NCBI GenBank assembly: GCA_021648085.1
Contig: JAKITS010000001.1
Coordinates: 682,759-746,758 of the forward strand
Direction of reading: 5' to 3'
Length of the DNA stretch: 64,000 bases
DNA from: Candidatus Magasanikiibacteriota bacterium
Lineage (GTDB): Bacteria; Patescibacteriota; Patescibacteriia; Magasanikbacterales; UBA922
Shown: piece after piece, positions 7,504 to 18,984 of the stretch
Layout: the number at the start of each line of letters is the position of its first letter
Position numbering within the stretch: position 1 is the first letter of the stretch
Program-made: the position numbers and the translations under genes
The notes under the pieces: model-generated
Told to the model about the DNA's origin: nothing
Seen by the model: the letters and a program-made list of their open reading frames with translations, nothing else
Database searches by the model: none

Positions 7504-8376
7504 ATGAAACAATATTTAGATATAGTAAAAAATGTATTGGAAAATGGAGAAAAAAAGGAAAACAGAACAGGAGTGGATACTATTGCGGTTGCTGGAGCTT
7601 TTTTCCAGCACGATATGTCCAAAGGTTTTCCAATGTTGACAACAAAAAGAGTACCTATCAGACTTGTCTCTAGTGAATTGGAATTTTTTATAAAAGGATT
7701 GACAGACAAACAGTGGTTGCAAGATAGAAACAACCACATTTGGGACGAATGGGCTTACCCAAAAAAAGCACCGTACGGACATAGCGAAGAAGCAAAGAAG
7801 AAAATGCGAGAAGAAAGAGATTTGGGTGCAATTTATGGATTTCAGTGGAGAAATTTCAATGCTCCGTACGACCACCACACCAGCGATTATTCTGGAAAAG
7901 GTGTAGATCAACTTAAAAATGTAGTTGACAAACTAAAAACAAACCCACATGACCGCAGAATGATAGTGTCGGCTTGGAATCCTACAATGATAAATGAAAT
8001 GGCTCTTCCGCCTTGCCACTATGCTTTTCAAGTGACAGTGATAAACGGAAAATTAAATCTACTCTGGAATCAGCGTTCTGTGGATGTTATGCTTGGGCTT
8101 CCTTTTAATATTGCGAGTTATGCCTTACTATTACATTTGCTCGCCAAAGAATCTGGTTTTGAAGAAGGTCGTCTAATTGGGTTTTTGGCAGATACTCATA
8201 TTTATGAAAATCATATAAATGGAGCAAAAGAACAATTAACACGCGATGTAACTAAATTCCAATTACCAAAAATAGAAACAGAAAATTTTTCATCTATTTT
8301 TGACTGGCAGTATACAGATACAAAACTTTCCAACTACCAAAGTTATCCACGAATTAAATTTGATATAGCAGTTTAA
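7504..8376 (+). CDS. thyA: thymidylate synthase (ThyA type)
   Basis: Opens MKQYLDIVKNVLENG. Carries the catalytic-Cys region PPCHYAFQV and ends with the ThyA C-terminal IKFDIAV. Confidence 0.95.
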   Translation: MKQYLDIVKNVLENGEKKENRTGVDTIAVAGAFFQHDMSKGFPMLTTKRVPIRLVSSELEFFIKGLTDKQWLQDRNNHIWDEWAYPKKAPYGHSEEAKKKMREERDLGAIYGFQWRNFNAPYDHHTSDYSGKGVDQLKNVVDKLKTNPHDRRMIVSAWNPTMINEMALPPCHYAFQVTVINGKLNLLWNQRSVDVMLGLPFNIASYALLLHLLAKESGFEEGRLIGFLADTHIYENHINGAKEQLTRDVTKFQLPKIETENFSSIFDWQYTDTKLSNYQSYPRIKFDIAV

Positions 8377-8377
8377 T

Positions 8378-8848
8378 ATGATCGCATTAATGTCAGCCGT
8401 AAGTGAAAACAATTGTATAGGAGTAAGTGGTGATTTGCCGTGGAATATTCCTGGAGATATGAAATTATTCAAAAAATATACAACAGGAAATGTGGTAATA
8501 ATGGGGCGAAAAACTTGGGAATCTCTACCAGAAAAATTTCGCCCACTTCCAAACAGAAAAAATATTATAATAACTAGGCAACCAGATTATAAAGCACCAG
8601 AAGAGGTGGCGGTTTATTCTGATATCAAAAAAGCTATACAAGCTCACAAAAATGAAAAAGTTTTTATAATTGGCGGTGGCGAAATTTACAAACAGTCTAT
8701 AGATTTGGCCGATACACTTTATATCACAAAAGTTCACCGAACAATAGATGTGTGCGATACTTTTTTCCCAAAAATAGACGAGACAAAATGGAAAATAACA
8801 GAAGAAGAAAAAATGGGAGAAATTTCTTTTTTAACTTATGAAAAATAA
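8378..8848 (+). CDS. folA: dihydrofolate reductase
   Basis: MIALMSAVSENNCIGVSGDLPWNIPGDMKLFKKYT...IMGRKTWESLP. The start is coupled to thyA. Confidence 0.9.
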   Translation: MIALMSAVSENNCIGVSGDLPWNIPGDMKLFKKYTTGNVVIMGRKTWESLPEKFRPLPNRKNIIITRQPDYKAPEEVAVYSDIKKAIQAHKNEKVFIIGGGEIYKQSIDLADTLYITKVHRTIDVCDTFFPKIDETKWKITEEEKMGEISFLTYEK

Positions 8849-8850
8849 TT

Positions 8851-9690
8851 ATGTCTAATAAAGACAGCTCGATCACGCTTTTTCACGAAAAACAAGTTCG
8901 CAGACATTGGAATGAAAAAGATGAACTTTGGTATTTTTCAGTTGTAGACGTTATTTCTGTTTTAACTAACTCTACAATTCCAAAAAGATATTGGAGTGAC
9001 CTAAAAAATAAATTTAAAAATGAAGGAAGTGAAGTGTACGAAAAAATCGTACGGTTCAAAATGATAGCTTCTGATAATAAAATAAGGGAAACCGACTGTT
9101 TCTCTACCCAAGATTTATTACGTGCAATCCAATCCATTCCCTCCCCAAAAGCAGAACCTTTCAAACTTTGGCTTGCAAAAGTTGGCTATGAAAGAATAGC
9201 AGAAACCGAAGATCCAGAACTTGCAATAGACCGAGCAATGCAAACCTATTTTAAAAAAGGATATTCCAAAGATTGGATAAATCAGAGAATAAAAACAATT
9301 GAAGTAAGAAAAGAATTAACAGATGAGTGGGAAGAAAGAGGAGTTCAAAAAGGAATAGAATTTGCAATTTTAACAGATGAGATTACAAAAGCTTGGTCTG
9401 GAAAATCTGTAAAACAATATAAAAAGTTTAAAAATCTTCAAAAACAGAATTTAAGAGATAGTATGACTAATTTGGAGTTGATTTTAAATATGCTTGCCGA
9501 AGCAACAACAACCGAAATATCCAAAGAAAAACAACCAAAAACTTTTTTAGAAAGTAAGGAAATCGCCAAAAAAGGTGGTGACACAGCAGGTAAAGCTAGG
9601 ATAGATATTGAAGAAAAAATAGGAAAAAGTATTATTTCCCCAAAAAATGCACACTATTTACAAAATAGTATAAATAACAAGTTGCAATAA
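8851..9690 (+). CDS. dinD: DinD-like DNA-damage-inducible protein (Bro-N N-terminal domain)
   Basis: By eye it aligns with E. coli DinD: a Bro-N-like N-terminus (FHEKQVRRHWNEKDELWYFSVVDV), a KAEPFKLWLAKV/AIDRAMQTYF block and an MTNLELILNMLAEATTTEIS block. Confidence 0.65.
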   Translation: MSNKDSSITLFHEKQVRRHWNEKDELWYFSVVDVISVLTNSTIPKRYWSDLKNKFKNEGSEVYEKIVRFKMIASDNKIRETDCFSTQDLLRAIQSIPSPKAEPFKLWLAKVGYERIAETEDPELAIDRAMQTYFKKGYSKDWINQRIKTIEVRKELTDEWEERGVQKGIEFAILTDEITKAWSGKSVKQYKKFKNLQKQNLRDSMTNLELILNMLAEATTTEISKEKQPKTFLESKEIAKKGGDTAGKARIDIEEKIGKSIISPKNAHYLQNSINNKLQ

Positions 9691-9723
9691 TTTTAACTTA
9701 ATTCTTAATCCTTTTTTAAAAAT

Positions 9724-10425
9724 ATGTTTATAATTTTAGATGGAATAGACGGCAGTGGAAAAACAACAATAATAAAAACTTGGGCTGAATATTTAGAAAA
9801 CAATGGTAAAAAAGTTTTTAATTTGATTGATTTTTGGAAAGAAAATGAAAAACACCCAAAAGCAGAAGACCTGCTTGAATATGATGTGATAATTTCTGGA
9901 GAACCAACACACGCCTGGATTGGCAAAGCTATTCGCAACGAAATAATACAAAATGGAAATGACTATACTGCAAGTGCCACAGCAAATGCATATTCATTGG
10001 ACAGATTAGTTCTTTATAAAAGAATTTTAGTTCCACTTCTAAAAGCTGGAAAAATAATTTTGCAAGACAGAAGTGTAAGCACTTCACTTTGTTATCAACC
10101 AATCCAGGGAAATGTAGATATAGATTTTGTGGCAAACTTGGAAGGAAATGCTTTTGCACTACAAAATGCTCCAGATTATTTGATAATCGCAAACCTACCC
10201 GCAAACTCTGCACTTGATAGACTTTCTACAAGATATGAAAAACAAGATAATACGATTTTTGAAAACAAACCATTTTTAGAAAAAGCACAAGCTCAGTTTT
10301 TGAATCCAGAATATCAAAAATATTTCACAGAAAAAGGAACTAAAATTGAAGTCTTGAATGTAAACACAGAAATTGCTATAATGAAAATGGATGCTTTAAA
10401 CTTACTTAAAAAAATAATGAACTAA
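9724..10425 (+). CDS. tmk: thymidylate kinase
   Basis: P-loop ILDGIDGSGKTT. A LID-region and a DRS-like motif (QDRSVSTS). Confidence 0.85.
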   Translation: MFIILDGIDGSGKTTIIKTWAEYLENNGKKVFNLIDFWKENEKHPKAEDLLEYDVIISGEPTHAWIGKAIRNEIIQNGNDYTASATANAYSLDRLVLYKRILVPLLKAGKIILQDRSVSTSLCYQPIQGNVDIDFVANLEGNAFALQNAPDYLIIANLPANSALDRLSTRYEKQDNTIFENKPFLEKAQAQFLNPEYQKYFTEKGTKIEVLNVNTEIAIMKMDALNLLKKIMN

Positions 10426-10428
10426 ACT

Positions 10429-11202
10429 ATGTTAATCCCAGCAAAAGAACTAATTCAAAAAACAATAGATATTTATAAAGAAAATTTTAAACTTTTCTTT
10501 TCGTATGTAATTGCACTATTTATTCCAACAGGGATAATAACAATACTCTCAACTTTTGTAAAAGAATTTGCAGCAAGTGATTCTGCCAGAGACGCAATGA
10601 TTTTCAATGGATATTTTGTTTTATTATTAGCCTCCTGGTTTGCTACATTTTGGATTACAGCAAGTTTTATACGTGTTTTCTACGCAAAATATAATGGAAA
10701 AGAAGTAAGAGATATTAAAACAGAATTATCAAATGTGAAACATGTTTTAATTCCTGCAATTTTAGCTTCTATATTATCTACACTTATTATTATTGTTGGA
10801 TATATACTCTTTATAATTCCAGGTGTAATATTTTCAATTTGGTATTTTTTTACACTTCATGAAGCCGTTATCAACGAAAAGAAGGTCGTGGAAGCTATTA
10901 AATCTAGTAAAGAACTGGTAAAAGGACGCTGGTGGGCAGTACTTTGGAGGTTGTTTGCTTCAATTTTAATTTTTGCTATTTTAATGTTAATTATAGGAGG
11001 ACTTGTTGGTGGAATTCTTGGTCTACTTACTTCTGGAATAGACGAAACATCCAGTGTTTACACTTTTGCTTTAATTATGTCTAGTTTAATTACAAGTTTT
11101 GTGAGTATACTTTTTATACCACTTACAAATGGGGCACCGATTATCCTATTTACTGAACTTCAAAAAACCCCAAAGGTTGCAGAAATAACACAAAAACAGT
11201 AA
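10429..11202 (+). CDS. polytopic membrane protein of unknown function; paralogue of 35966..36952
   Basis: 6-7 hydrophobic helices. It shares the ...VEAI...W..LW.LFA... architecture with the ORF at 35966. Confidence 0.5.
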   Translation: MLIPAKELIQKTIDIYKENFKLFFSYVIALFIPTGIITILSTFVKEFAASDSARDAMIFNGYFVLLLASWFATFWITASFIRVFYAKYNGKEVRDIKTELSNVKHVLIPAILASILSTLIIIVGYILFIIPGVIFSIWYFFTLHEAVINEKKVVEAIKSSKELVKGRWWAVLWRLFASILIFAILMLIIGGLVGGILGLLTSGIDETSSVYTFALIMSSLITSFVSILFIPLTNGAPIILFTELQKTPKVAEITQKQ

Positions 11203-11225
11203 AATAGAAACAACTTAGGTAGATT

Positions 11226-11257
11226 AAAAAACCCTTCTACTTTAGAAGGGTTTTTTG
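11226..11257 (+). terminator. Rho-independent terminator
   Basis: aacccttctactttagaagggtt followed by TTTTTT. Confidence 0.7.
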
Positions 11258-11276
11258 TTTCTATCCTACACAAGTA

Positions 11277-11384
11277 TAGCGACTCCTGTCTGCCAGCAGG
11301 CTATCATCAAGTCAAATGCAATTTGACAATTCATCAAACGAAGTGATCTATCGAGCAAAGCGATCCATCACTTCCTAATTCTTC
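11277..11384. repeat. GC-rich palindromic repeat unit (cctgtctgccagcagg; tcaaatgcaatttga; gaagtgatctatcg/cgatccatcacttc)
   Basis: Inverted repeats read from the sequence. It is related to the element at 46464-46560 (gctcgatNgatcaNttcg) and shares the aacgaagtg core with the type-A elements. Confidence 0.6.
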
Positions 11385-11390
11385 AAAAAT

Positions 11391-12935
11391 ATGTATCAAA
11401 CAATCATTGGAATGGAGGTTCATGTAGAACTAAAAACAAATAGCAAAATGTTTTGCTCTTGCAAAAATAATCCAGACGAAAATGAGCCAAATAAAAATGT
11501 ATGCGAAATTTGCCTTGGTCACCCAGGCACGCTTCCAACAGCAAACAAAAAAGCCATCGCGTGGACTGTAAAAATTGGAAAAGCTTTGGGCTGTTCTATT
11601 CGTGAAGTTTCAAAATTTGATCGTAAACATTATTTTTATCCAGACCTGCCAAAAGCATATCAAATTTCTCAGTTTGACGAGCCTATTGCAGAACACGGAG
11701 AAATAACTCTTACTTTTGAAACAGAAGAAAATGTTCGCGATACTGCTTTGATTGAGATAGAAAGAGTACATTTGGAAGAAGATACAGCAAAATTGACACA
11801 TGACAAAGAAGGAAACACTTTGGCAGATTTCAATCGCGCCAGCACTCCCCTCGTTGAAATTGTATCAAGGCCAGATTTCAAAACTCCACTTGAAGCAAAA
11901 ACTTATTGCCAAGAATTACGCTCAATTTTGAGATATTTAAATGTGAGTGATGCGAATATGGAAAAAGGTCTAATGCGTTGTGAGGCAAATATTTCTGTGC
12001 AAGAAGCAGGAAAATTTGAAATTGTGGATGGAGTTGTAAAACCACTTGGTGATTATGTTTTAAATTCAAAAGTTGAAGTAAAAAACTTAAATTCTTTTAA
12101 AGCAGTAGAGAAAGCACTTGAATTTGAAATTGCGCAGCAGACAAAAATGCTGGAAAATGGAGAAAATTGGGAACAGCAGACAAAAGGTTGGGACGCAAAA
12201 AAACAAGAAACAATTCCACAAAGAAAAAAGGAATCTGCACATGATTATAGATATTTTCCAGAACCAGATATTCCACCGTTTCACCCTTTGCAAATTGCTG
12301 GTGAGATAAGTTTGCCAGAATTACCAATTGCAAAAAGAAAGAGGTTTCACACAGAGTACGGATTTTCCTATTCTGACTCCAAAATACTGACAAACGATAA
12401 AGAGTGGGCAGATTTTACCGAACGCGTGATGAGCGAGCTTGTGGACTGGTTGCACAGCCTGCCAGAAATAAAAGGAGATAGCAATGAAATAATGGAAGAA
12501 AAAAGAAATAAAATCGCACGACTTTGTGGAGGCTGGCTTACCAGTAAACTAATGGGTGAAATGATAAATAGAAAAATGCATATAAAAACTTTGGCAATTT
12601 CTCCAGAAAATTTTGCAGAACTTGTGGCACTTGTTTATGCTGAACGCATCAATTCTACAAATGCACTCAAACTTTTGGGAGATATGCTTAACGCTGGAAC
12701 TGATATTGACCCGACACAAATAATGGAGGAAAAAGGTTATGGGCAAATTAACGATGAAGGAAAATTGGGTGAAATTATAGAAAATGTAATCCGAAGTTAT
12801 CCAGACCAAGTGGAACAATTTAAACAAGGAAAAGAACCAATACTAAAATTCCTAATTGGAATGGCAATGAAAGCAAGTGAAGGAAGTGCTGACCCAAAAG
12901 TTTTGGAAAAAATGCTTAGAGAAAAATTGAAATAA
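11391..12935 (+). CDS. gatB: Asp-tRNA(Asn)/Glu-tRNA(Gln) amidotransferase subunit B
   Basis: GatB N-terminus MYQTIIGMEVHVEL, a Cys cluster, and a C-terminal YqeY-like domain. Confidence 0.95.
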   Translation: MYQTIIGMEVHVELKTNSKMFCSCKNNPDENEPNKNVCEICLGHPGTLPTANKKAIAWTVKIGKALGCSIREVSKFDRKHYFYPDLPKAYQISQFDEPIAEHGEITLTFETEENVRDTALIEIERVHLEEDTAKLTHDKEGNTLADFNRASTPLVEIVSRPDFKTPLEAKTYCQELRSILRYLNVSDANMEKGLMRCEANISVQEAGKFEIVDGVVKPLGDYVLNSKVEVKNLNSFKAVEKALEFEIAQQTKMLENGENWEQQTKGWDAKKQETIPQRKKESAHDYRYFPEPDIPPFHPLQIAGEISLPELPIAKRKRFHTEYGFSYSDSKILTNDKEWADFTERVMSELVDWLHSLPEIKGDSNEIMEEKRNKIARLCGGWLTSKLMGEMINRKMHIKTLAISPENFAELVALVYAERINSTNALKLLGDMLNAGTDIDPTQIMEEKGYGQINDEGKLGEIIENVIRSYPDQVEQFKQGKEPILKFLIGMAMKASEGSADPKVLEKMLREKLK

Positions 12936-12943
12936 ACAAAACA

Positions 12944-12973
12944 AAAAAGAACTTTTAAAAAGTTCTTTTTTGT
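12944..12973 (+). terminator. Rho-independent terminator
   Basis: aagaacttttaaaaagttctt followed by TTTTTT. Confidence 0.7.
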
Positions 12974-13029
12974 TTTAACCTTTTCACATAAACTCCCCGC
13001 TCAACCTAAAAAAGGTTAAGCGGGATTTT

Positions 13030-13482
13030 TTATTCCCAACAATTTACAAGACCCTCTTTTAAATGATGCTCTTTTGCCATTATTTTTATTAATTTTATTT
13101 CGATATCATTAAAAAAAATCATTGCATAACATGTTGCCTGAGCATCTAATTTCTCGGCAGTAGTAAATTTCCAATTTAAATCAACACCTAAAATAATATG
13201 CCCTTCTTCGTGTCGAAGAACAAATTCTTGCAAAAGTGGTGGTAAATTTTGTATATAAAAAGTATCCACAACTATTATTAATTCTCCTTCTGGATTTTCT
13301 ATAACCTCGGCTACAGTATGCCCATCCCAACGATAATTACCAACATCATCTGGATCTAAAGGAGAATAATAAATTTTTATATTTGGATCACTTGGTGTGA
13401 ATTCAACAAGTTTATAAGTCTTACAAGCATTCAGACCTATTAAAAAAAATAGACAAGCAAATACAGTTAAATTTCTCACCAC
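13030..13482 (-). CDS. putative lipoprotein with an HExxH (HEEGH) zinc-metallopeptidase-like motif
   Basis: Signal peptide with lipobox LIGLNAC. Motif VLRHEEGHII. Confidence 0.45.
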   Translation of the reverse strand: MVRNLTVFACLFFLIGLNACKTYKLVEFTPSDPNIKIYYSPLDPDDVGNYRWDGHTVAEVIENPEGELIIVVDTFYIQNLPPLLQEFVLRHEEGHIILGVDLNWKFTTAEKLDAQATCYAMIFFNDIEIKLIKIMAKEHHLKEGLVNCWE

Positions 13483-13840
13483 TCTTCCCTCCTTTTATAA
13501 ATTGTAGGGAATGGACGCACCCAAAATTAGGTGTAAATTTATTTTAACACTTTAAAAATAAATTACCAAAAATATAATATTATCATAATACATTAAATTT
13601 TATCCACAACCCAAGTTTTGCACAAAAATTAAAATCCTGTTATTATTTATCGCAGTATGAATACATCAAAATATCTACAAAATTCAGAAAATAAATACGG
13701 TAATAATAAAATCACCTAGTCGGTGATTTTTTTCTTTTTTATGAATATACTAAAAATAATTCTGCAACAATTAGACATAAATAAAGTTACTAGATACAGT
13801 TGCCTTAGAATAATTATTTCTAGGCAAGTTTATTCCACCT

Positions 13841-13867
13841 AAACTGGTGGTATTTTTTTAAAAAATT
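13841..13867 (+). promoter_or_regulatory. hairpin plus U-tract ~5 nt upstream of the pyrB start (candidate attenuator)
   Basis: ccacctaaactggtgg followed by tattttttt. A second terminator-like hairpin lies at 13718-13748. Confidence 0.35.
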
Positions 13868-13869
13868 TT

Positions 13870-15318
13870 ATGAACCAAAATTTCAAAGGAAAAAGTATTA
13901 TATCCATCAAAGAATTAACAAAAGAAGAAATTCTTTATATTTTAGAATGTGCACAAGAGTTAAAAATTAACCCAAAACCAAACCTACTTTCAGGATATGT
14001 CATGGGAAGTTGCTTTTTTGAACCATCTACTAGAACTAGACTATCTTTTGAAACTGCTATGAATCGTTTGGGTGGAAAAGTAGTGGGATTTGCAAATGCT
14101 GGAATAACCTCAGCAAAAAAAGGGGAAACTTTATATGATTCAATAAAAAATATTGGTCAATATGTGGATATAATAGCAATGCGTCATCCTTTGGAAGGAA
14201 CTGCCAGAAGAGCGACGGAGGCAACAGACAAACCAATTTTAAACGGCGGAGACGGCACAAATCAACATCCAACTCAAACACTTTTAGATTTATTTTCAAT
14301 AAAAGAGTGTCAAGGAACTTTAAATAATTTGAACATTGCGATAATAGGAGATTTGAAATATGGAAGAACTGCACACAGCCTAACACAAGCTCTAACTCAT
14401 TTTAAACCTAGATTACATTTTGTTGCTCCAAATTTTCTGCAAATGCCCAATTATATACTCGACGGACTAAAAGAAAATGGAATTGAGTATTTTTTACATA
14501 AAAAAATGGAAAACCTGTTGACTGAAGTGGATATTTTGTATATGACAAGAATTCAAGCAGAAAGATTTTCAGATCGAGCAGCATATGAAAAAGTAAAAAA
14601 TGTCTATATTTTGACATCTGGTATGCTTCAAAATGTTAAAGAAAATATGAGAATTATGCATCCACTACCGAGAGTAAATGAGATTGAGACAAAAATAGAC
14701 GACACAAAATATGCATACTATTTTCAACAAGCAGAAAACGGATTATTTGTGCGGCAAGCACTTCTGGGATTATTACTTGGGAAATCAATTTTAAATGAAA
14801 ATATGCAAATTAATGAGCCAACTTTTAATAATTACAGAATTGAAAATAAACAATTTGAGAATGAAAATAAACAATTTAAAGTTCTCACCATAGAAAACGG
14901 AACAGTTATAGACCATATACCTAAAAAAGTTGCTTTTAAATTATTCAAAATATTAAACTTGGCAAGTGACAATAAAATAGTATCAATAGGTGTAAATTTT
15001 CCTAGTCAAAAAGTGGGTACAAAAAATTTAATTAAAATAGAAAATAAAGAATTAACAGAAAAAGAAGTTAGTATTTTGGCTATTTTTGCACCGGACGCCA
15101 CGATAAATATTATCCGCAATTTTAAAGTTTATAAAAAATTTAAAACTGTAATTCCAAAAGAAGTCGCCAAACTTTTGGTTTGTCCAAATCCAAACTGTAT
15201 AACAAATAATGAAAAAATGGATAGTCATTTTTTCATTAATAAAAATAATTTAGACGCTCAATGCAAATATTGTGAGAAAATTTTTCATCAAAATGAAATT
15301 AAAAAATATAAAATATAA
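13870..15318 (+). CDS. pyrBI: aspartate carbamoyltransferase, catalytic and regulatory chains fused (PyrB-PyrI)
   Basis: N-terminal ATCase motifs: STRTR, HPTQ, HPLP. The C-terminal ~150 aa matches the PyrI regulatory chain (GTVIDHIP, LIKIEN, VCPNPNCI, CKYCEK). Confidence 0.85.
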   Translation: MNQNFKGKSIISIKELTKEEILYILECAQELKINPKPNLLSGYVMGSCFFEPSTRTRLSFETAMNRLGGKVVGFANAGITSAKKGETLYDSIKNIGQYVDIIAMRHPLEGTARRATEATDKPILNGGDGTNQHPTQTLLDLFSIKECQGTLNNLNIAIIGDLKYGRTAHSLTQALTHFKPRLHFVAPNFLQMPNYILDGLKENGIEYFLHKKMENLLTEVDILYMTRIQAERFSDRAAYEKVKNVYILTSGMLQNVKENMRIMHPLPRVNEIETKIDDTKYAYYFQQAENGLFVRQALLGLLLGKSILNENMQINEPTFNNYRIENKQFENENKQFKVLTIENGTVIDHIPKKVAFKLFKILNLASDNKIVSIGVNFPSQKVGTKNLIKIENKELTEKEVSILAIFAPDATINIIRNFKVYKKFKTVIPKEVAKLLVCPNPNCITNNEKMDSHFFINKNNLDAQCKYCEKIFHQNEIKKYKI

Positions 15319-15323
15319 AAAAT

Positions 15324-16277
15324 ATGAGACATATAATTTCACTAAAAGAACAATCAAAAAATGATATTTTGGGAATACTCAACACAGCTATAAAACTGAA
15401 AAAAGAATTTAAATCTGGAGTTGAACATAAAATATTATCAAACCAAACTTTGATAATGCTTTTTCAAAAATCATCCACCAGAACAAGACTTTCTTTTGAA
15501 ACAGCTATGACACAATTGGGCGGACACGCTATTTTTCTAGATGCAAAAACTACTCAGTTTTCTTTGACTGATTTTGGTGATGAAGTGCAAGCTGTTATGA
15601 GATTTGGAGAACTGCTAATGTTTAGAGCCAAAAAATCCGCAGATGTGGAATTGGCAGCTAATTTTGACAATATTCCAGTGGTGGACGCTTGTAGTGAAAA
15701 ATATCATCCAGCACAAGCTTTAAGCGATATTTTGACAATGGCTGAACATAGTGGAGGTCTAGAAAATGTAAAAAAAATAGTTTGGCTTGGAGTAGAAAAT
15801 AATGTTTCAAACACACTAATGCTTGCTTGCGCAAAATTAGGAATAGAAGTTGTTTTGGTGGCACCAGAAATAGACCCAGATAGTATTGATACAGAATTAA
15901 ACAAACAAGCAGAAGAAACAGGAAAAATAAAAAGAACATTGAATTTGCGTGATGCACTACAAGACGCAGATTATGTTCATACAGATACTTGGATGAATAT
16001 GGAGTTTTTTGAAAATGGAAAAGTAAAGCCAGAAATGCAAGAAGAATTTTACAGAAAAAAAGAAAAATTTATGCCATATCAACTTAATGCTAATTTAATT
16101 GATACTTACGCACCAAACGCAAAAATAATGCATTGTATGCCTTGTCATATTGGATATGAAATATCACGCGATGCTATTGATCACAAAAATTCAATAATTT
16201 TTGATCAGGCTGAAAACAGATTGCATATGCAAAAAGCTATGATATTATGGATGTTGGAGAAAGAAAATCTAGTTTAG
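15324..16277 (+). CDS. ornithine-carbamoyltransferase-family transcarbamylase with a non-canonical substrate motif
   Basis: STRTR and HPAQ are present. MHCMPCH corresponds to OTC HCLP. IFDQAENRLH matches OTC. DTWMNME replaces the canonical DxWxSMG. Confidence 0.75.
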   Translation: MRHIISLKEQSKNDILGILNTAIKLKKEFKSGVEHKILSNQTLIMLFQKSSTRTRLSFETAMTQLGGHAIFLDAKTTQFSLTDFGDEVQAVMRFGELLMFRAKKSADVELAANFDNIPVVDACSEKYHPAQALSDILTMAEHSGGLENVKKIVWLGVENNVSNTLMLACAKLGIEVVLVAPEIDPDSIDTELNKQAEETGKIKRTLNLRDALQDADYVHTDTWMNMEFFENGKVKPEMQEEFYRKKEKFMPYQLNANLIDTYAPNAKIMHCMPCHIGYEISRDAIDHKNSIIFDQAENRLHMQKAMILWMLEKENLV

Positions 16278-16278
16278 T

Positions 16279-18984
16279 ATGAAAATTTTAAACGAGCCGA
16301 TTTATGACAAAAATAAATCTTATCAATACAACCTTATAAACGGTCCGTTTTTCAATGAAGAAATTCCAACGATTCCTGATGTAGAAAAAGAAAAATGGGT
16401 TGATTTTCTAGGTTTTAAAATTCGCTCCAGAATCGGTGTGCCAGCTGGACCACTCTTGAGCTCAAAATGGATAGCTCTTGCCTCGAAAATGGGGTTTGAT
16501 ATTCTCACTTACAAAACAATTCGAAGTAAATATGCAGGTGGGCACAAGAGTCCAAATATTGTGTTCGTTGAAACTCCAAACCAATTTAAAACTTCAGACC
16601 TGAACACAAATTTTACACTCAAAAAAACTCCAGTTAAAAAGACAGGTGAAATAGCAATCACCAACTCTTTTGGTATGCCTTCTATGGATCCAGATTTTCT
16701 AATAGAAGATATCAAAAAAGCTCACGCAAGTATAAAAGAAGGGCAAATTATCATAGTTTCTGTAGTTGGAAGCCAAAGCGAAAATACAAGTTTGGCAGAA
16801 GATTTTGTAAATGTTTCTAAGCTTGCAAAAAGTGCTGGTGCAAAAATAATTGAGGTAAATTTTTCTTGTCCAAATGTAAAAAGTAAAGAAGGAATTTTGT
16901 ACAAAGACTCTGAGCAAGTTTTTGAGATAATTCAAAAAATAAAAAATGAAATAAAAGAAACACCTTTAATCGTAAAACTTGGTTTTTTTGAAACTGTAGA
17001 ATCACTCCAAAAAACTTTGGTTGCAATATCAAAAGCTGGAGCCTCTGGAATTGCGGGTATAAACTCTGTCTCCGTAGCCGTTCAAAAAGAAGATGGCTCA
17101 CCAGCACTTGGAATTGGTAGAGAAAAAAGTGGACTTTGCGGAAACCCAATTCGAAATTTAGCACTAGAATTGACAAAAAATGCAAAAGAAATTATTGAAA
17201 ATAAAAGCTTAAATCTAAAAATAATTGGAATGGGTGGAGTTTCCGAACCAAAGCATTTCAATGAATTTTTGCAAGCCGGAGCCGATATTACAATGACCGC
17301 AACCACAATGCTTTGGCATCCACAAATAGCATTTGAATATAAAAAAGAACAGCAAAAAAATAAACTGGTTTCAGATTTATTTGAAATAGGCGCTATAAAA
17401 TTTGGTGGATTTACTCTAAAAAATGGAACTCTCTCGCCTATTTATATAGATCTGCGTATCACAGTTTCATATCCAAAAATTCTGATGAAAATTGCAGACG
17501 CATTAAATGAATTAGCTTCAAATACAGATTTTGATCTTATTTGTGGAGTTCCTTATACTGCCCTACCGTTTGCTACAGCAATGTCTATAAAATATAATAT
17601 TCCAATGGTAATGCGCAGAAAAGAAGCAAAAAAATACGGCACAAAAAAAATAATAGAAGGTGCTTTTGAGTCAGGGCAAACATGTTTAATTGTAGAAGAT
17701 TTGATTACAAGCGGATCTAGTGTTTTAGAAACTGTTGAACCGCTAAATGATGTAGGCCTAAATGTGACAGATGTTGTAATACTTTTGGACAGACAGCAAG
17801 GCGGAAGAGAAAATTTAGAAAAAGCTGGAATAACAGTAAAATCAATCTTTAAAATAAGTGAATTGTTGGAAACCCTTTTAAACCAAAATAAAATCTCTGA
17901 ACAAAAATTTAATGAAATACAAAATTATCTTTATAGCACAAAAATAGAAAAAATAACAATACGAAAACCAGATGATTTTCATGTGCATTTGCGCAGAGGA
18001 CAAACACTTATCAATGTTTTACCTTTTACATCCGCAGTATTCAAAAGAGCCGTAATAATGGGAAACACAACTCCACCAATTAAAAATAGTCCTGACGTTA
18101 TTTCTTACAAAAAAGAAATAGGACTGCACGCTCACGACGGATTCACGCCAATAATGTCGATAATGCTTACAAACAGCACAACACCAAAAGACATAGAAGA
18201 TGCTTTTGACGCTGGAGCAAAAGTATTAAAACTTATCCCTGAAGGAACCTCTACAAATTCCGATGAAGGTGTGCCTTTGTCACTTCTTAAAAATTATTAC
18301 AATGTCCTTAAAATTGTACAAGATTTGGGTATGATTTTCTCTGGACACTGGGAGTTAATTGAAAATCCAGAAACTGGAGAAAAAATTCCTGAAATAGAAA
18401 GAGAAACACAGGCAATTCCATTTCTTTTAAAATTAATTAGAGATTTTCCTAAATTAAAAATAGTTGTAGAACATGTGACATCCAAAGAAATGATACAAAC
18501 TGTTGAACAATCTCCTAACAATGTTTCAGCTACTATTTCTGCACACCATCCAATTTTAACTTTTGACGATGTGTGCAATAAAGATAGTGATATTATCAAT
18601 CCCCTCAATTATTGCAAACCTATCGCAAAAAATGAGGTAGACCAAAAAGCAATAATTAAAGCAATGACTAGCGGAAATCCAAAATTCTTTTTTGGTTCAG
18701 ATAGCGCTCCACATCCAATTAATCAGAAAATAGATAGCCAAAATTGTCCTGCTGGAATATTTTCAGCCCCAATTGCATTACCTTTATTATGCGAAATTTT
18801 TGAAAATGAAAATGCTTTAGATAAATTAGAAGATTTTGTATCAAAATTTGGTGCAGAATTTTATGGAATACCTTTAAACCAAGAATCTATTACATTGAAA
18901 AAGGAGCAGTGGAATACTCCTTATGAACACAACGGAATTGGAATATTTAAAGGTAAAGATAAATTAAATTGGCAAATTATTTAA
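16279..18984 (+). CDS. pyrDEC: trifunctional fusion: dihydroorotate dehydrogenase (class 1) - orotate phosphoribosyltransferase - dihydroorotase
   Basis: N-terminal domain: NFSCPN, GMGGV (PyrD family 1). Middle domain: FEIGAIKFGGFTLKNGTLSPIYIDLR...LIVEDLITSGSSV (PyrE). C-terminal domain: RKPDDFHVHLRRG...GSDSAPH...FYGIP, which aligns by eye with E. coli-type PyrC. Confidence 0.85.
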   Translation: MKILNEPIYDKNKSYQYNLINGPFFNEEIPTIPDVEKEKWVDFLGFKIRSRIGVPAGPLLSSKWIALASKMGFDILTYKTIRSKYAGGHKSPNIVFVETPNQFKTSDLNTNFTLKKTPVKKTGEIAITNSFGMPSMDPDFLIEDIKKAHASIKEGQIIIVSVVGSQSENTSLAEDFVNVSKLAKSAGAKIIEVNFSCPNVKSKEGILYKDSEQVFEIIQKIKNEIKETPLIVKLGFFETVESLQKTLVAISKAGASGIAGINSVSVAVQKEDGSPALGIGREKSGLCGNPIRNLALELTKNAKEIIENKSLNLKIIGMGGVSEPKHFNEFLQAGADITMTATTMLWHPQIAFEYKKEQQKNKLVSDLFEIGAIKFGGFTLKNGTLSPIYIDLRITVSYPKILMKIADALNELASNTDFDLICGVPYTALPFATAMSIKYNIPMVMRRKEAKKYGTKKIIEGAFESGQTCLIVEDLITSGSSVLETVEPLNDVGLNVTDVVILLDRQQGGRENLEKAGITVKSIFKISELLETLLNQNKISEQKFNEIQNYLYSTKIEKITIRKPDDFHVHLRRGQTLINVLPFTSAVFKRAVIMGNTTPPIKNSPDVISYKKEIGLHAHDGFTPIMSIMLTNSTTPKDIEDAFDAGAKVLKLIPEGTSTNSDEGVPLSLLKNYYNVLKIVQDLGMIFSGHWELIENPETGEKIPEIERETQAIPFLLKLIRDFPKLKIVVEHVTSKEMIQTVEQSPNNVSATISAHHPILTFDDVCNKDSDIINPLNYCKPIAKNEVDQKAIIKAMTSGNPKFFFGSDSAPHPINQKIDSQNCPAGIFSAPIALPLLCEIFENENALDKLEDFVSKFGAEFYGIPLNQESITLKKEQWNTPYEHNGIGIFKGKDKLNWQII

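Follow-up and report, generated by a model that had tools for sequence, protein, structure and literature searches.

A remodelled ornithine-transcarbamylase-like enzyme in the pyrimidine operon of a Candidatus Magasanikbacteria genome, and a possible citrulline route to carbamoyl phosphate in CPR bacteria and DPANN archaea

The pyrimidine operon of a Candidatus Magasanikbacteria metagenome-assembled genome carries, next to aspartate transcarbamylase (ATCase), a gene for another transcarbamylase whose substrate motif departs from that of ornithine transcarbamylase (OTC), which raises the question of what reaction such an enzyme performs in this place. We analysed the gene within a stretch of 64,000 nucleotides, hereafter the window. 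Its open reading frame (ORF) spans exactly 15324..16277 on the + strand, starts with ATG and encodes a protein of 317 aa (NCBI MCF6276906.1), referred to here as T. Matches to two Pfam domains, OTCace_N (E 1.5e-36) and OTCace (E 1.6e-40), show it to be a genuine gene rather than a reading frame open by chance. We put the probability at about 0.5, roughly even odds, that T works as an OTC and that it here converts citrulline and phosphate into ornithine and carbamoyl phosphate (CP) for the adjacent ATCase.

Immediately upstream, across a gap of 5 nt, lies a fused PyrB-PyrI of 482 aa (ATCase catalytic plus regulatory chain; 13870..15318, + strand), recognised by TIGR00670 (369.6 bits, cut-off 236.95), TIGR00240 (162.4 bits, cut-off 148.55) and Pfam PyrI and PyrI_C. 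Only 1 nt separates T from the downstream gene, a fused PyrD-PyrE-PyrC of 901 aa (16279..18984, + strand) that joins dihydroorotate dehydrogenase (PF01180, DHO_dh, residues 127-347), orotate phosphoribosyltransferase (NF010382, residues 353-556, 242.7 bits) and type-II dihydroorotase (TIGR00856, residues 558-900, 328.4 bits). The position of T between pyrBI and pyrDEC, described in an earlier note on this DNA, is confirmed, both neighbours being single fused ORFs. A tblastn search with seed proteins across all 64 kb bore out that note's observation that the window holds no carAB, and likewise returned no carbamate kinase (arcC), ArcA, ArcE-like protein, ArgG, ArgH, PyrF or PyrK. Neither a citrulline source (ArcA or ArcE-like) nor a transporter for citrulline, arginine or ornithine was identified in the window, and an Rfam scan of the pyrBI leader gave no match above noise.

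Translation located in T all the motifs that the earlier note had read from the sequence (STRTR, HPAQ, HCMPCH, DTWMNME and IFDQAENRLH); alignment divides them into a conserved CP site and a remodelled second-substrate site (all features on the + strand; Lys53, Asn167, Asp231, Ser235, Met236, Gly237 and Cys273 follow E. coli numbering). The CP-binding motif FQKSSTRTR (residues 47-55; 15462..15488), invariant in the clade, has the OTC-type Lys in third position of FxKxSxRT; this Lys49, the equivalent of Lys53 within LFQKSSTRTR (residues 46-55), is invariant in the alignment. HPAQ (residues 128-131; 15705..15716) corresponds to the HPxQ CP motif, and the C-terminal block IFDQAENRLH (residues 292-301; 16197..16226) contains the CP-binding Arg of "ENR", which we take to be the counterpart of E. 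coli R319 and human R330. HCMPCH (residues 270-275; 16131..16148) stands in place of HCLPAH and keeps the Cys273 equivalent, followed by Ile-Gly-Tyr-Glu instead of the canonical Arg-Gly-Glu-Glu.

Three substrate loops differ from those of canonical OTCs. The 80s loop, TTQFSL-TDFGDE (15549..15584), has one residue fewer than the canonical Q-L-R-R-G-E-T-I-A-D-T, and no "GE", when aligned with the OTCs of P. furiosus, E. coli and H. salinarum, with putrescine transcarbamylase (PTC) and with ATCase. GVENNVSN (residues 156-163; 15789..15812) replaces GDGNNV, with the Asn pair, including the Asn167 equivalent, retained. DTWMNME (residues 221-227; 15984..16004) replaces DxWxSMG: the equivalents of Met236 and of Asp231, which binds the alpha-amino group, are kept, Ser235 has become Asn (Asn or Asp across the clade) and Gly237 has become Glu. 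Directly after it comes FFENGKVKPE (16005..16034), an insertion of ~10 aa peculiar to the 240s (SMG) loop of this clade. It is predicted to fold as a small beta-hairpin, as DSSP assignment of the AF2 model places strands at ~229-234, before a helix at 236-252.

STRTR, HPxQ, Cys-x-Pro, the ENR Arg and the equivalents of Lys53, Asn167, Asp231 and Met236 are invariant in the clade, and so are the three altered loops, namely DTW[MIL][ND]ME with its 10-aa hairpin, G[IV]ENN and the shortened 80s loop. Almost all of the 120 database proteins closest to T, as well as the loci of 67 species, show DTW[MIL][ND]ME, HCMPCH and G[IV]ENNVSN, so the altered DxWxSMG noticed earlier is no quirk of one sequence. 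The AF2 model (pLDDT 95) superimposes on OTC and PTC structures with TM scores of 0.86-0.87. T is best explained as a probably active OTC-branch transcarbamylase, predicted to be unknotted after its best structural matches, OTC and PTC.

To which family, then, does T belong? The OTCase signature consists of DxxxSMG, FxKxSxRT and HCLP (Shi et al. 2015, PMC4581275), and the same study assigns second-substrate specificity to the 80s loop, the GDGNN motif and the 240s loop. T carries the Lys of FxKxSxRT, an HxLP motif with Cys (HCMP, Leu to Met) and the Asn167 equivalent (the pair in ENNV being invariant), but has DTWMNME where the signature has DxxxSMG. Its best NCBIfam models are OTC models, yet it scores under every curated cut-off, narrowly so for TIGR00658/NF001986 (275.0 versus 280.85 and 283.8 versus 306). 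The ATCase markers FxExSxRT, RxQxER (240s loop) and HPLP-R are all absent from T, which scores 131.5 against 236.95 with TIGR00670 and shares 26-29% identity with PyrB. The knotted families (AOTCase, SOTCase, YgeW) are marked by a proline-rich loop and an extended 120s loop, and T misses the cut-offs of their models as well (NF003384, 130.5 versus 288; TIGR03316, 56.1 versus 500), with 22-24% identity to YgeW-like and AOTC-like sequences. The diaminopropionate and diaminobutyrate transcarbamylase markers, (T/S)RWQTTG or TRWQSMG and HDLP (PMC4581275), do not occur in T, which keeps Asp221 and has HCMP.

A neighbour-joining tree placed T on the OTC branch, away from ATCase, in a tight CPR/DPANN clade (49-76% identity; bootstrap 197/200; best GTDB-representative match 76%) outside all sampled SMG-type OTCs and PTC. 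The earlier note had called for such a placement; it gave T a clade of its own rather than a position firmly within canonical anabolic OTCs. We used only the two well-supported clades of this tree, that of T and its sister, since it does not resolve the backbone of the canonical OTCs and draws the YgeW-like and AOTC-like outgroups inside, probably through long-branch attraction. Judged by its sequences, the T clade is a previously undescribed OTC branch of ultra-small bacteria and archaea; we found no literature on it or on an OTC gene in CPR pyrimidine operons.

The sister group (174/200) comprises the NF011379/PRK14804-type OTCs of Zixibacteria, Latescibacteria and others, which have in common with T the D-x-W-x-[DN]-M-E-[FY] motif, G[IV]xNN, a short 80s loop and an insertion in the 240s loop. 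In them HDMP takes the place of HCMP and the insertion is shorter, and they share only 38-42% identity with T; NF011379 (cut-off 373) gives T 273.7 bits, against 445 and 373.9 for the PRK14804-type proteins P0130 and P0128. Their genes stand alone in large genomes, and the two contexts examined (P0318, P0357) were uninformative. A literature search returned no experimental characterisation of either group.

Canonical OTCases (TIGR00658/NF001986) share with T the two-domain fold, the complete CP site and Lys53, Asn167, Asp231, Met236 and Cys273, and provide its best HMM and PDB matches. They differ from it at SMG, which is [ND]ME plus the 10-aa hairpin in T, at GDGNN (G[IV]ENN), in the 80s loop, shorter and without GE in T, and at HCLPAHRGEE (HCMPCH[VI]GYE). 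The P. furiosus OTC (1a1s, Thermococcales), 38% identical to T, has the canonical DVWASMG, GDGNN and HCLPAHRGEE.

Within the OTC branch, PTC is a catabolic enzyme that generates CP and is paired with carbamate kinase. The E. faecalis enzyme (PDB 4a8p/3txx; TIGR04384) is structurally as similar to T as OTC is (TM 0.86), but PTC has Gln in FxQxSxRT where T has Lys, a (Y/W)(G/W)(V/L/I)x loop (Y-G-L) where T has NME, and a C-terminal helix of ~20 aa that T, which ends level with OTCs, lacks. Identity between T and a PTC is 33%, and TIGR04384 scores 227.2 bits against a cut-off of 500. The PTC comparison sequence was an unannotated E. raffinosus gene recognised by its motifs; no annotated PTC was found among plasmids.

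To relate T to its metabolic surroundings, we surveyed the loci of its orthologues in 67 species (L numbers denote individual loci; L081 and L082 are additional, metagenomic ones). Sixteen of the 67 lie in a pyrimidine operon of the order pyrB-pyrI-pyrC-T-pyrD(-pyrK)-pyrE-pyrF with gaps of 14-90 nt, T always between pyrC and pyrD, and in a single case, L036, PyrC and T form one continuous ORF of 706 aa. No carAB was seen in 11-12 of these 16 loci within the 6-10 kb of upstream sequence examined. As a counterpoint, carA-carB stands directly upstream of the same operon in L036 and L054, and a CarB fragment lies at the contig edge in L045 and probably L026 (3-4 of 16); T in such operons need not supply CP and may act anabolically. 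None of the pyrimidine-context loci has argG or argH near T.

About three quarters of the loci carry no pyr genes at all. In 7 of 67 the gene directly upstream of T encodes carbamate kinase (TIGR00746, 398.9 bits versus a cut-off of 358), an arrangement that a review of carbamoyl phosphate takes as the mark of catabolic transcarbamylases (PMC6022934). An ArcE-like gene adjoins T in four loci of the 67 (L012, L032, L034, L048), and both metagenomic loci hold three-gene operons of arcE-like gene, carbamate kinase and T; orthologues in these ArcE-like/carbamate-kinase operons are 62-73% identical to T. NodU/CmcH-type carbamoyltransferases, which also consume CP, adjoin T in another context (7/67). 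Two basal clade members with the same motif sit in argG-argH clusters (L063, argG-argH-T-argE-like; L066, argG-argH-carA-carB-T); in L063 the gene after T encodes an ArgE/DapE-family deacylase, and his genes follow. No arcA occurs near T in any of the 67 loci, and agmatine deiminase, allantoin-pathway and pyrimidine-degradation genes are not recurrent beside it.

In the tree, T genes of the pyrimidine, carbamate-kinase and NodU contexts are intermingled, as would fit a single activity serving several contexts, the nearest to the T of the window being L023 (pyrimidine), L006 (carbamate kinase) and L007 (pyrimidine). A LysE-type exporter gene follows T only in the lineage L001/L002, and we rejected it as a general ornithine exporter on account of this confinement. 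An apparent 830-aa fusion in L034 was dismissed, its N-terminal part being the upstream ArcE-like gene read through in the wrong frame, in DNA of 68% GC. Stronger conservation of T than of its neighbours was also discarded as a sign of horizontal transfer, as PyrB is equally conserved (67% against 70%).

The ArcE-like gene encodes a P-loop protein of 439 aa, named "predicted GTPase" or "cDPG synthase" in databases, with weak sequence similarity to cDPG synthetase and with cDPG synthetase, then A. aeolicus LpxK (4EHY), as best structural matches. Because ArcE and carbamate kinase can each run both ways, an arcE-arcC-T operon does not on its own set the direction of the reaction. The assignment is a putative one, made by description: the protein fits the published account of arginine synthetase ArcE, including a position near arcB/arcC, and ArcE can synthesise arginine from citrulline in vivo (PMC11032458).

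ArcB (OTC, TK0871) of the Thermococcus kodakarensis arginine synthetase pathway (Michimori et al. 2024, PMC11032458; 2026, PMC13260591) resembles T in the role proposed for it, in that phosphorolysis of citrulline yields CP for pyrimidines without carbamoyl-phosphate synthetase (CPSase). In this archaeon, which has no CPSase, deletion of arcE or arcB causes severe growth defects in the absence of pyrimidines and deletion of arcC has little effect (PMC13260591). The partners of ArcB are ArcE and carbamate kinase, as in the ArcE-like-carbamate-kinase-T operons of CPR relatives. Unlike this module, T in the window has no ArcE, carbamate kinase or ArcA beside it; carbamate kinase and ArcE-like partners occur at the orthologous loci counted above. 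The locus numbers of arcB (TK0871), arcC (TK2158) and arcE (TK2200) are far apart and arcB is not described in a pyrimidine operon, whereas T lies inside one. Catabolic use of an OTC with carbamate kinase is also known from a CPR bacterium, Saccharibacteria TM7x, whose ArcB is Bacillus-like (65% identity to B. cereus ArcB) and was acquired with arcA and arcD/E as a classical ADI operon (Tian et al. 2022, PMC8764695); the T clade, in contrast, is never accompanied by arcA.

In the mechanism we propose, T would catalyse ornithine + CP <-> citrulline + phosphate through its remodelled ornithine-binding site and, co-transcribed with the fused PyrBI and PyrD-PyrE-PyrC, would run phosphorolytically from citrulline and phosphate. 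PyrBI would be the presumed consumer of the CP so made, and the adjoining ATCase and dihydroorotase reactions, both essentially irreversible, would draw the unfavourable equilibrium forward. Citrulline or arginine obtained from a host or the environment could then sustain de novo pyrimidine synthesis with no need of CPSase. Ornithine and citrulline are suggested as substrates by the gene contexts of orthologues, not by the active site; the direction is suggested by the absence of a CP-producing gene from the operon and the window and by the T. kodakarensis analogy, and channelling of CP to ATCase by the PyrC-T fusion alone.

The earlier note had weighed a catabolic OTC feeding CP to ATCase against a transcarbamylase for a different amino acid. 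The former proves the better supported because of the ArcE-like and carbamate-kinase operons, the basal argG-argH loci, the pyrC-pyrD position with its PyrC fusion and the physiology of T. kodakarensis, although the related operons with carAB speak against it and carAB or a carbamate kinase gene may lie elsewhere in the 984-kb genome. It competes with an anabolic OTC that draws CP from a CPSase or an anabolic carbamate kinase elsewhere and passes citrulline to arginine through ArgG/ArgH or a reversible ArcE-like enzyme, its placement reflecting a shared CP pool. The four loci with carAB or a CarB fragment upstream, the same motif variant in argG-argH clusters, arginine synthesis from citrulline by ArcE in vivo (PMC11032458) and the closest solved relative of T, P. 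furiosus OTC, would all suit such an enzyme. That OTC is of anabolic type. We nevertheless consider an anabolic role unlikely: neither argG, argH, an ArcE-like gene nor carAB occurs within the 64 kb, most pyrimidine operons with T have no carAB in the examined flank, argG and argH are absent near every one of them, carbamate-kinase adjacency is a catabolic hallmark (PMC6022934), and a lone arginine-pathway step in the pyrimidine operon of a ~1-Mb CPR genome would have no obvious use.

A different second substrate, such as an N-acylated ornithine, a diamine or another ureido compound, with CP released or consumed, is the note's other proposal, and we disfavour it as distinctly improbable. Its strength lies in the missing DxxxSMG and in the invariant remodelling of precisely those loops that determine second-substrate specificity, as well as in the Asp of the sister group's HDMP, shared with diaminopropionate and diaminobutyrate transcarbamylases (PMC4581275); the deacylase gene in L063, the PTC structures at the top of the Foldseek list for the T model and the scores under every curated cut-off point the same way. 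Yet the equivalents of Asp231, Asn167, Lys53, Met236 and Cys273 are all kept, the markers of PTC (TIGR04384, 227 versus 500) and of DPTCase/DBTCase (T/S-RWQ, HDLP) are absent, no neighbour from agmatine, allantoin or pyrimidine degradation recurs, and the ArcE-like, carbamate-kinase, argG and argH contexts point to citrulline and arginine. The inactive PyrC' subunit of Pseudomonas ATCase offers an analogy for a non-catalytic structural or regulatory partner of an ATCase/DHOase complex, with which the fixed pyrC-pyrD position and the one PyrC-T fusion would agree. That T is such a partner is barely credible, given catalytic and CP-binding residues invariant across 49-76% identity and orthologues in about three quarters of loci without pyr genes, often with carbamate kinase or NodU-type enzymes.

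CPR bacteria and DPANN archaea are generally portrayed as lacking de novo nucleotide synthesis; a compact pyrimidine pathway, with some of its enzymes fused, is encoded by the operon in the window and by roughly one in four of the related loci, and its CP may come from citrulline rather than from CPSase. It is possible, though we hold this only tentatively, that these lineages have a CPSase-independent pathway in which a remodelled OTC-like "citrulline phosphorylase", sometimes fused to PyrC, is integral, hands CP directly to ATCase and brings dependence on host citrulline or arginine, the altered SMG loop and hairpin fitting a catabolic or channelling role or a non-ornithine substrate.

For the family, the textbook rule that DxxxSMG denotes OTCase fails for the large, strongly conserved T clade and for its PRK14804-type sister, both automatically annotated as OTC, and the remodelled loops and hairpin amount to a natural experiment on what determines the substrate specificity or the reaction direction of a transcarbamylase. 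The ArcE-like contexts suggest that CPR bacteria use the recently discovered arginine synthetase (ArcE) pathway. If the proposed role of T is true, pyrimidine synthesis in these organisms would be tied to host arginine or citrulline, a concrete dependency, and a mechanism not demonstrated until 2026, in Thermococcus, would extend to two very large uncultivated radiations.

The transcarbamylase gene (T) lies at positions 15324-16277 of the forward strand, with an ATG start and 317 encoded residues, as the earlier note had it, and both transcarbamylase domains are matched in Pfam (E 1.5e-36 and 1.6e-40). Translation located every motif the note had named, namely STRTR within FQKSSTRTR (residues 47-55), HPAQ (128-131), DTWMNME (221-227), HCMPCH (270-275) and IFDQAENRLH (292-301), together with GVENNVSN (156-163). 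Its placement in a pyrimidine operon likewise held: a single 482-aa ORF fusing PyrB and PyrI (13870-15318, forward) lies 5 nt upstream, and a single 901-aa ORF fusing PyrD, PyrE and PyrC (16279-18984, forward) follows after 1 nt. Tblastn with seed sequences across the whole 64-kb window (GC ~31%) returned no match to CarA or CarB, in line with what the sequence had suggested, nor to carbamate kinase (CK), ArcA, ArcE-like protein, ArgG, ArgH, PyrF or PyrK; the searches covered these 64 kb of a 984,181-bp contig.

PyrB and PyrI are separate genes in every related locus examined, whereas here they form one ORF, which scores only 211 bits against the bifunctional PyrB/PyrI model NF009916 (cut-off 800). 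Relatives carry a separate Amidohydro_1-type dihydroorotase before T, whereas the PyrC fused in the window is of type II (pyrC_dimer, TIGR00856, 328 bits, cut-off 293); in the PyrD part, the DHO_dh profile does not match the N-terminal ~126 residues, and pyrF and pyrK lie inside the operon in relatives only. The pyrBI leader contains two terminator-like hairpins (13708-13730 and 13835-13850, forward), each followed by a T-run; together they could make up an attenuator responsive to pyrimidines. A scan of this leader matched nothing in Rfam, PyrR sites included. Further upstream, a phage antirepressor-like Bro-N domain protein (PF02498, E 1.6e-8; 8851-9690, forward) separates DHFR and thymidylate kinase genes that directly adjoin in a syntenic relative.

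Databases already name T an ornithine carbamoyltransferase (OTC), including its identical NCBI entry, MCF6276906.1 ('MAG: ornithine carbamoyltransferase [Candidatus Magasanikbacteria bacterium]'). OTC models are indeed its best NCBIfam matches, yet every one falls below its curated cut-off: NF001986, 283.8 bits (306); TIGR00658, 275.0 (280.85); and the PRK14804-type NF011379, 273.7 (373). Scores against the models for putrescine transcarbamylase (PTC; TIGR04384, 227 bits, cut-off 500), aspartate transcarbamylase (ATCase; TIGR00670, 131.5, 236.95), AOTCase (NF003384, 130.5, 288) and YgeW (TIGR03316, 56, 500) were lower. By sequence, P. furiosus OTC 1a1s is the solved structure nearest to T (E 3e-60; 38% identity). 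A confident AlphaFold2 model (pLDDT 95, pTM 0.92; built on 38 sequences) fits PTC and OTC structures equally well (TM 0.86-0.87) and so gives no means of telling the two apart by fold.

Active-site residues were assessed by the criteria of Shi et al. 2015 (PMC4581275). In the alignment, the carbamoyl phosphate (CP) site is complete (STRTR, HPxQ, Cys-x-Pro and the ENR arginine), and five ornithine-binding equivalents are retained: Lys53 (FxKxSxRT), Asn167, Asp231, Met236 and Cys273 in E. coli OTC numbering. Four departures from canonical OTCs are each invariant across the clade: SMG is replaced by [N/D]-M-E, with ~10 residues inserted after it that the model predicts as a small beta-hairpin (~residues 229-234); GDGNN becomes G[IV]ENN; the 80s loop, shorter by one residue, is without the canonical Gly-Glu; and HCLPAHRGEE becomes HCMPCH[VI]GYE. 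Because T fails the published OTCase signature DxxxSMG, it is not classed here as a canonical OTCase.

Phylogenetic placement, which the earlier note had proposed, set T in its own clade, apart from the sampled canonical OTCs and PTC (neighbour joining, 99 sequences, 300 columns; 197 of 200 bootstraps, basal members L063, L064 and L066 at 49-56% identity included). Many database proteins are 70-76% identical to T, from Magasanik-, Falkow-, Peregrini-, Pace-, Portnoy- and other CPR bacteria, and GTDB species genomes yielded 67 loci in CPR bacteria and DPANN archaea (Woese-, Nano- and Iainarchaeota), although some binning labels ('Gammaproteobacteria', 'Methanosarcinales') look unreliable. Clustered at 50%, the clade reduces to a single full-length representative, the next relatives being just 38-44% identical. 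Orthologues with an ArcE-like neighbour also occur in genomes of 67-68% GC (L034, L048; one labelled Wallbacteria) and remain 62-68% identical to the protein of the 31% GC window, which points to strong constraint or to transfer across very different genomes. One relative at 43% identity (P0125) has lost STRTR (TEKGTTRTG) while retaining HCMPCH; judged by sequence, it could be a paralogue that has lost its activity or taken on a new function.

The T clade and a PRK14804-type sister group join in the tree (174/200), and outside this joint group fall all sampled SMG-type OTCs, E. coli ArgI, two catabolic ArcBs, P. furiosus OTC and one PTC, with no resolved order among the OTC backbone branches. 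In common with the T clade, the sister group has [DN]ME, the altered G-x-x-NN and a shortened 80s loop, but it carries HDMP instead of HCMP. Six members (P0127, P0128, P0130, P0131, P0163, P0165) have HDMP for HCLP and D-x-W-x-D-M-E for DxxxSMG, the Asp of HDMP being the one found in diaminopropionate/diaminobutyrate transcarbamylases. Their NCBI name, ornithine carbamoyltransferase, derives from the equivalog model NF011379/PRK14804, whose cut-off some pass (P0130, 445 bits; P0128, 373.9); we found no experimental characterisation behind it.

To survey gene context, ORFs were called in all loci, clustered and labelled with seeds and HMMs. Among the 67 species loci, 16 are pyr operons (pyrB-pyrI-pyrC-T-pyrD(-pyrK)-pyrE-pyrF), with T immediately behind pyrC and ahead of pyrD in all 16. 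One of them (L036, 5195-7315) joins PyrC to T in an uninterrupted 706-aa ORF, within the order carA-carB-pyrB-pyrI-[pyrC-T]-pyrD. This fusion and the fixed gene order hint at a possible physical coupling. carA-carB lies directly upstream in L036 and L054, and L045 and probably L026 have part of CarB at the edge of the contig; the 6-10 kb flanks of the remaining 11-12 pyr loci contain no carAB. CK is directly upstream of T in seven loci (TIGR00746, 398.9 bits, cut-off 358.25), a 439-aa P-loop protein adjoins it in four, a CP-consuming NodU/CmcH-type carbamoyltransferase occurs amid sugar-modification genes in seven, and about half show T alone. Two basal members lie in argG-argH clusters: L063 (DTWMDMEY) reads ArgG (549.7 bits)-ArgH (333.8)-T-ArgE/DapE-type deacylase, then his genes, and L066 (DTWINMEF) reads ArgG-ArgH (309.9)-CarA-CarB-T. 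No locus contains arginine deiminase (ArcA).

T genes of pyr, CK and NodU contexts are intermixed in the tree, the window's nearest neighbours being L023 (pyr), L006 (CK) and L007 (pyr); from this interleaving of sequences, one enzyme activity appears to serve all three. L006, the closest GTDB relative, keeps the flanking synteny (thyA-DHFR-tmk-UPF0259-gatB), and at the window's pyr site carries CK, T, an aspartate ammonia-lyase-like protein (469.5 bits, cut-off 510), a small ORF and uracil phosphoribosyltransferase (9045-13183), thus coupling CP catabolism to the salvage of pyrimidines instead of their de novo synthesis. L044, one of the seven CK loci, has a YgeW-type knotted transcarbamylase (603 bits, cut-off 453), CK and T in series (7816-10936), two distinct transcarbamylases served by one CK.

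The 439-aa neighbour has a GCGKS P-loop, a weak CobW/HypB/UreG match in Pfam and no matching NCBIfam model. Its sequence faintly resembles cyclic 2,3-diphosphoglycerate synthetase (E 4e-8), and source databases label it 'predicted GTPase' or 'cyclic 2,3-diphosphoglycerate synthase'; its AlphaFold2 model (pLDDT 87) best matches cDPG synthetase and then Aquifex LpxK 4EHY. This profile agrees with the description of arginine synthetase ArcE (TK2200), a hypothetical or putative GTPase with low cDPG synthase similarity, superposable on LpxK 4EHY and often near arcB/arcC, which catalyses arginine + ADP + Pi <-> citrulline + NH3 + ATP (Michimori et al. 2024, PMC11032458). The neighbour is probably ArcE. 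Two metagenomic contigs carry three-gene ArcE-like-CK-T operons (L081, 5169-8954; L082, 5703-8954) whose T is 73% identical to ours, and equal-sized source contigs imply several more with both proteins. The gene also accompanies T in L012, L032, L034 and L048, and its family is 70-79% conserved over CPR, Bathyarchaeia, Ignavibacteria and Kapabacteria; Michimori et al. (2024) do not name CPR phyla among the ArcE bearers listed in their main text.

These ArcE-like/CK operons and the argG-argH clusters tie the clade to citrulline, and on that ground T probably works as an OTC. A second substrate other than ornithine would fit the remodelling of three specificity loops and the departure from SMG, but is made quite improbable by the conserved Asp231/Asn167/Lys53/Met236/Cys273 set, by the missing PTC and DPTCase/DBTCase markers and by the orthologues' gene contexts. 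A non-catalytic scaffold is hardly credible given the invariant catalytic residues.

In the window, T and the CP consumer PyrBI are the operon's only CP-related genes and no CP-producing gene was found in the 64 kb, so citrulline phosphorolysis is the most economical reading. T would phosphorolyse citrulline, pulled by ATCase and the later steps, and thereby feed ATCase with CP, one of the roles the earlier note had envisaged; the same physiology has been demonstrated in T. kodakarensis, an organism without carbamoyl-phosphate synthetase (PMC13260591). We hold this at a probability of about 0.5, given the 64-kb scope of the searches (the other 920 kb lying outside), the carAB-pyr-T operons of some relatives and the question of the citrulline source. 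An anabolic OTC drawing on a CP pool made elsewhere is a possible, though unlikely, alternative.

We found no published description of the clade or its motif signature, of T inside CPR/DPANN pyr operons, of a PyrC-T fusion or of ArcE-type operons in CPR bacteria. A different enzyme lineage serves the Saccharibacteria ADI system, whose Bacillus-like ArcB was gained jointly with arcA. In seven species (L017, L040, L041, L047, L049, L053, L060), the NodU/CmcH-type carbamoyltransferase (Carbam_trans_N and Carbam_trans_C) lies 0-2.7 kb from T, surrounded by NAD-dependent epimerase/dehydratase genes. This proximity suggests that T may also supply CP for glycan or metabolite carbamoylation. The predictions made here for T are directly testable.
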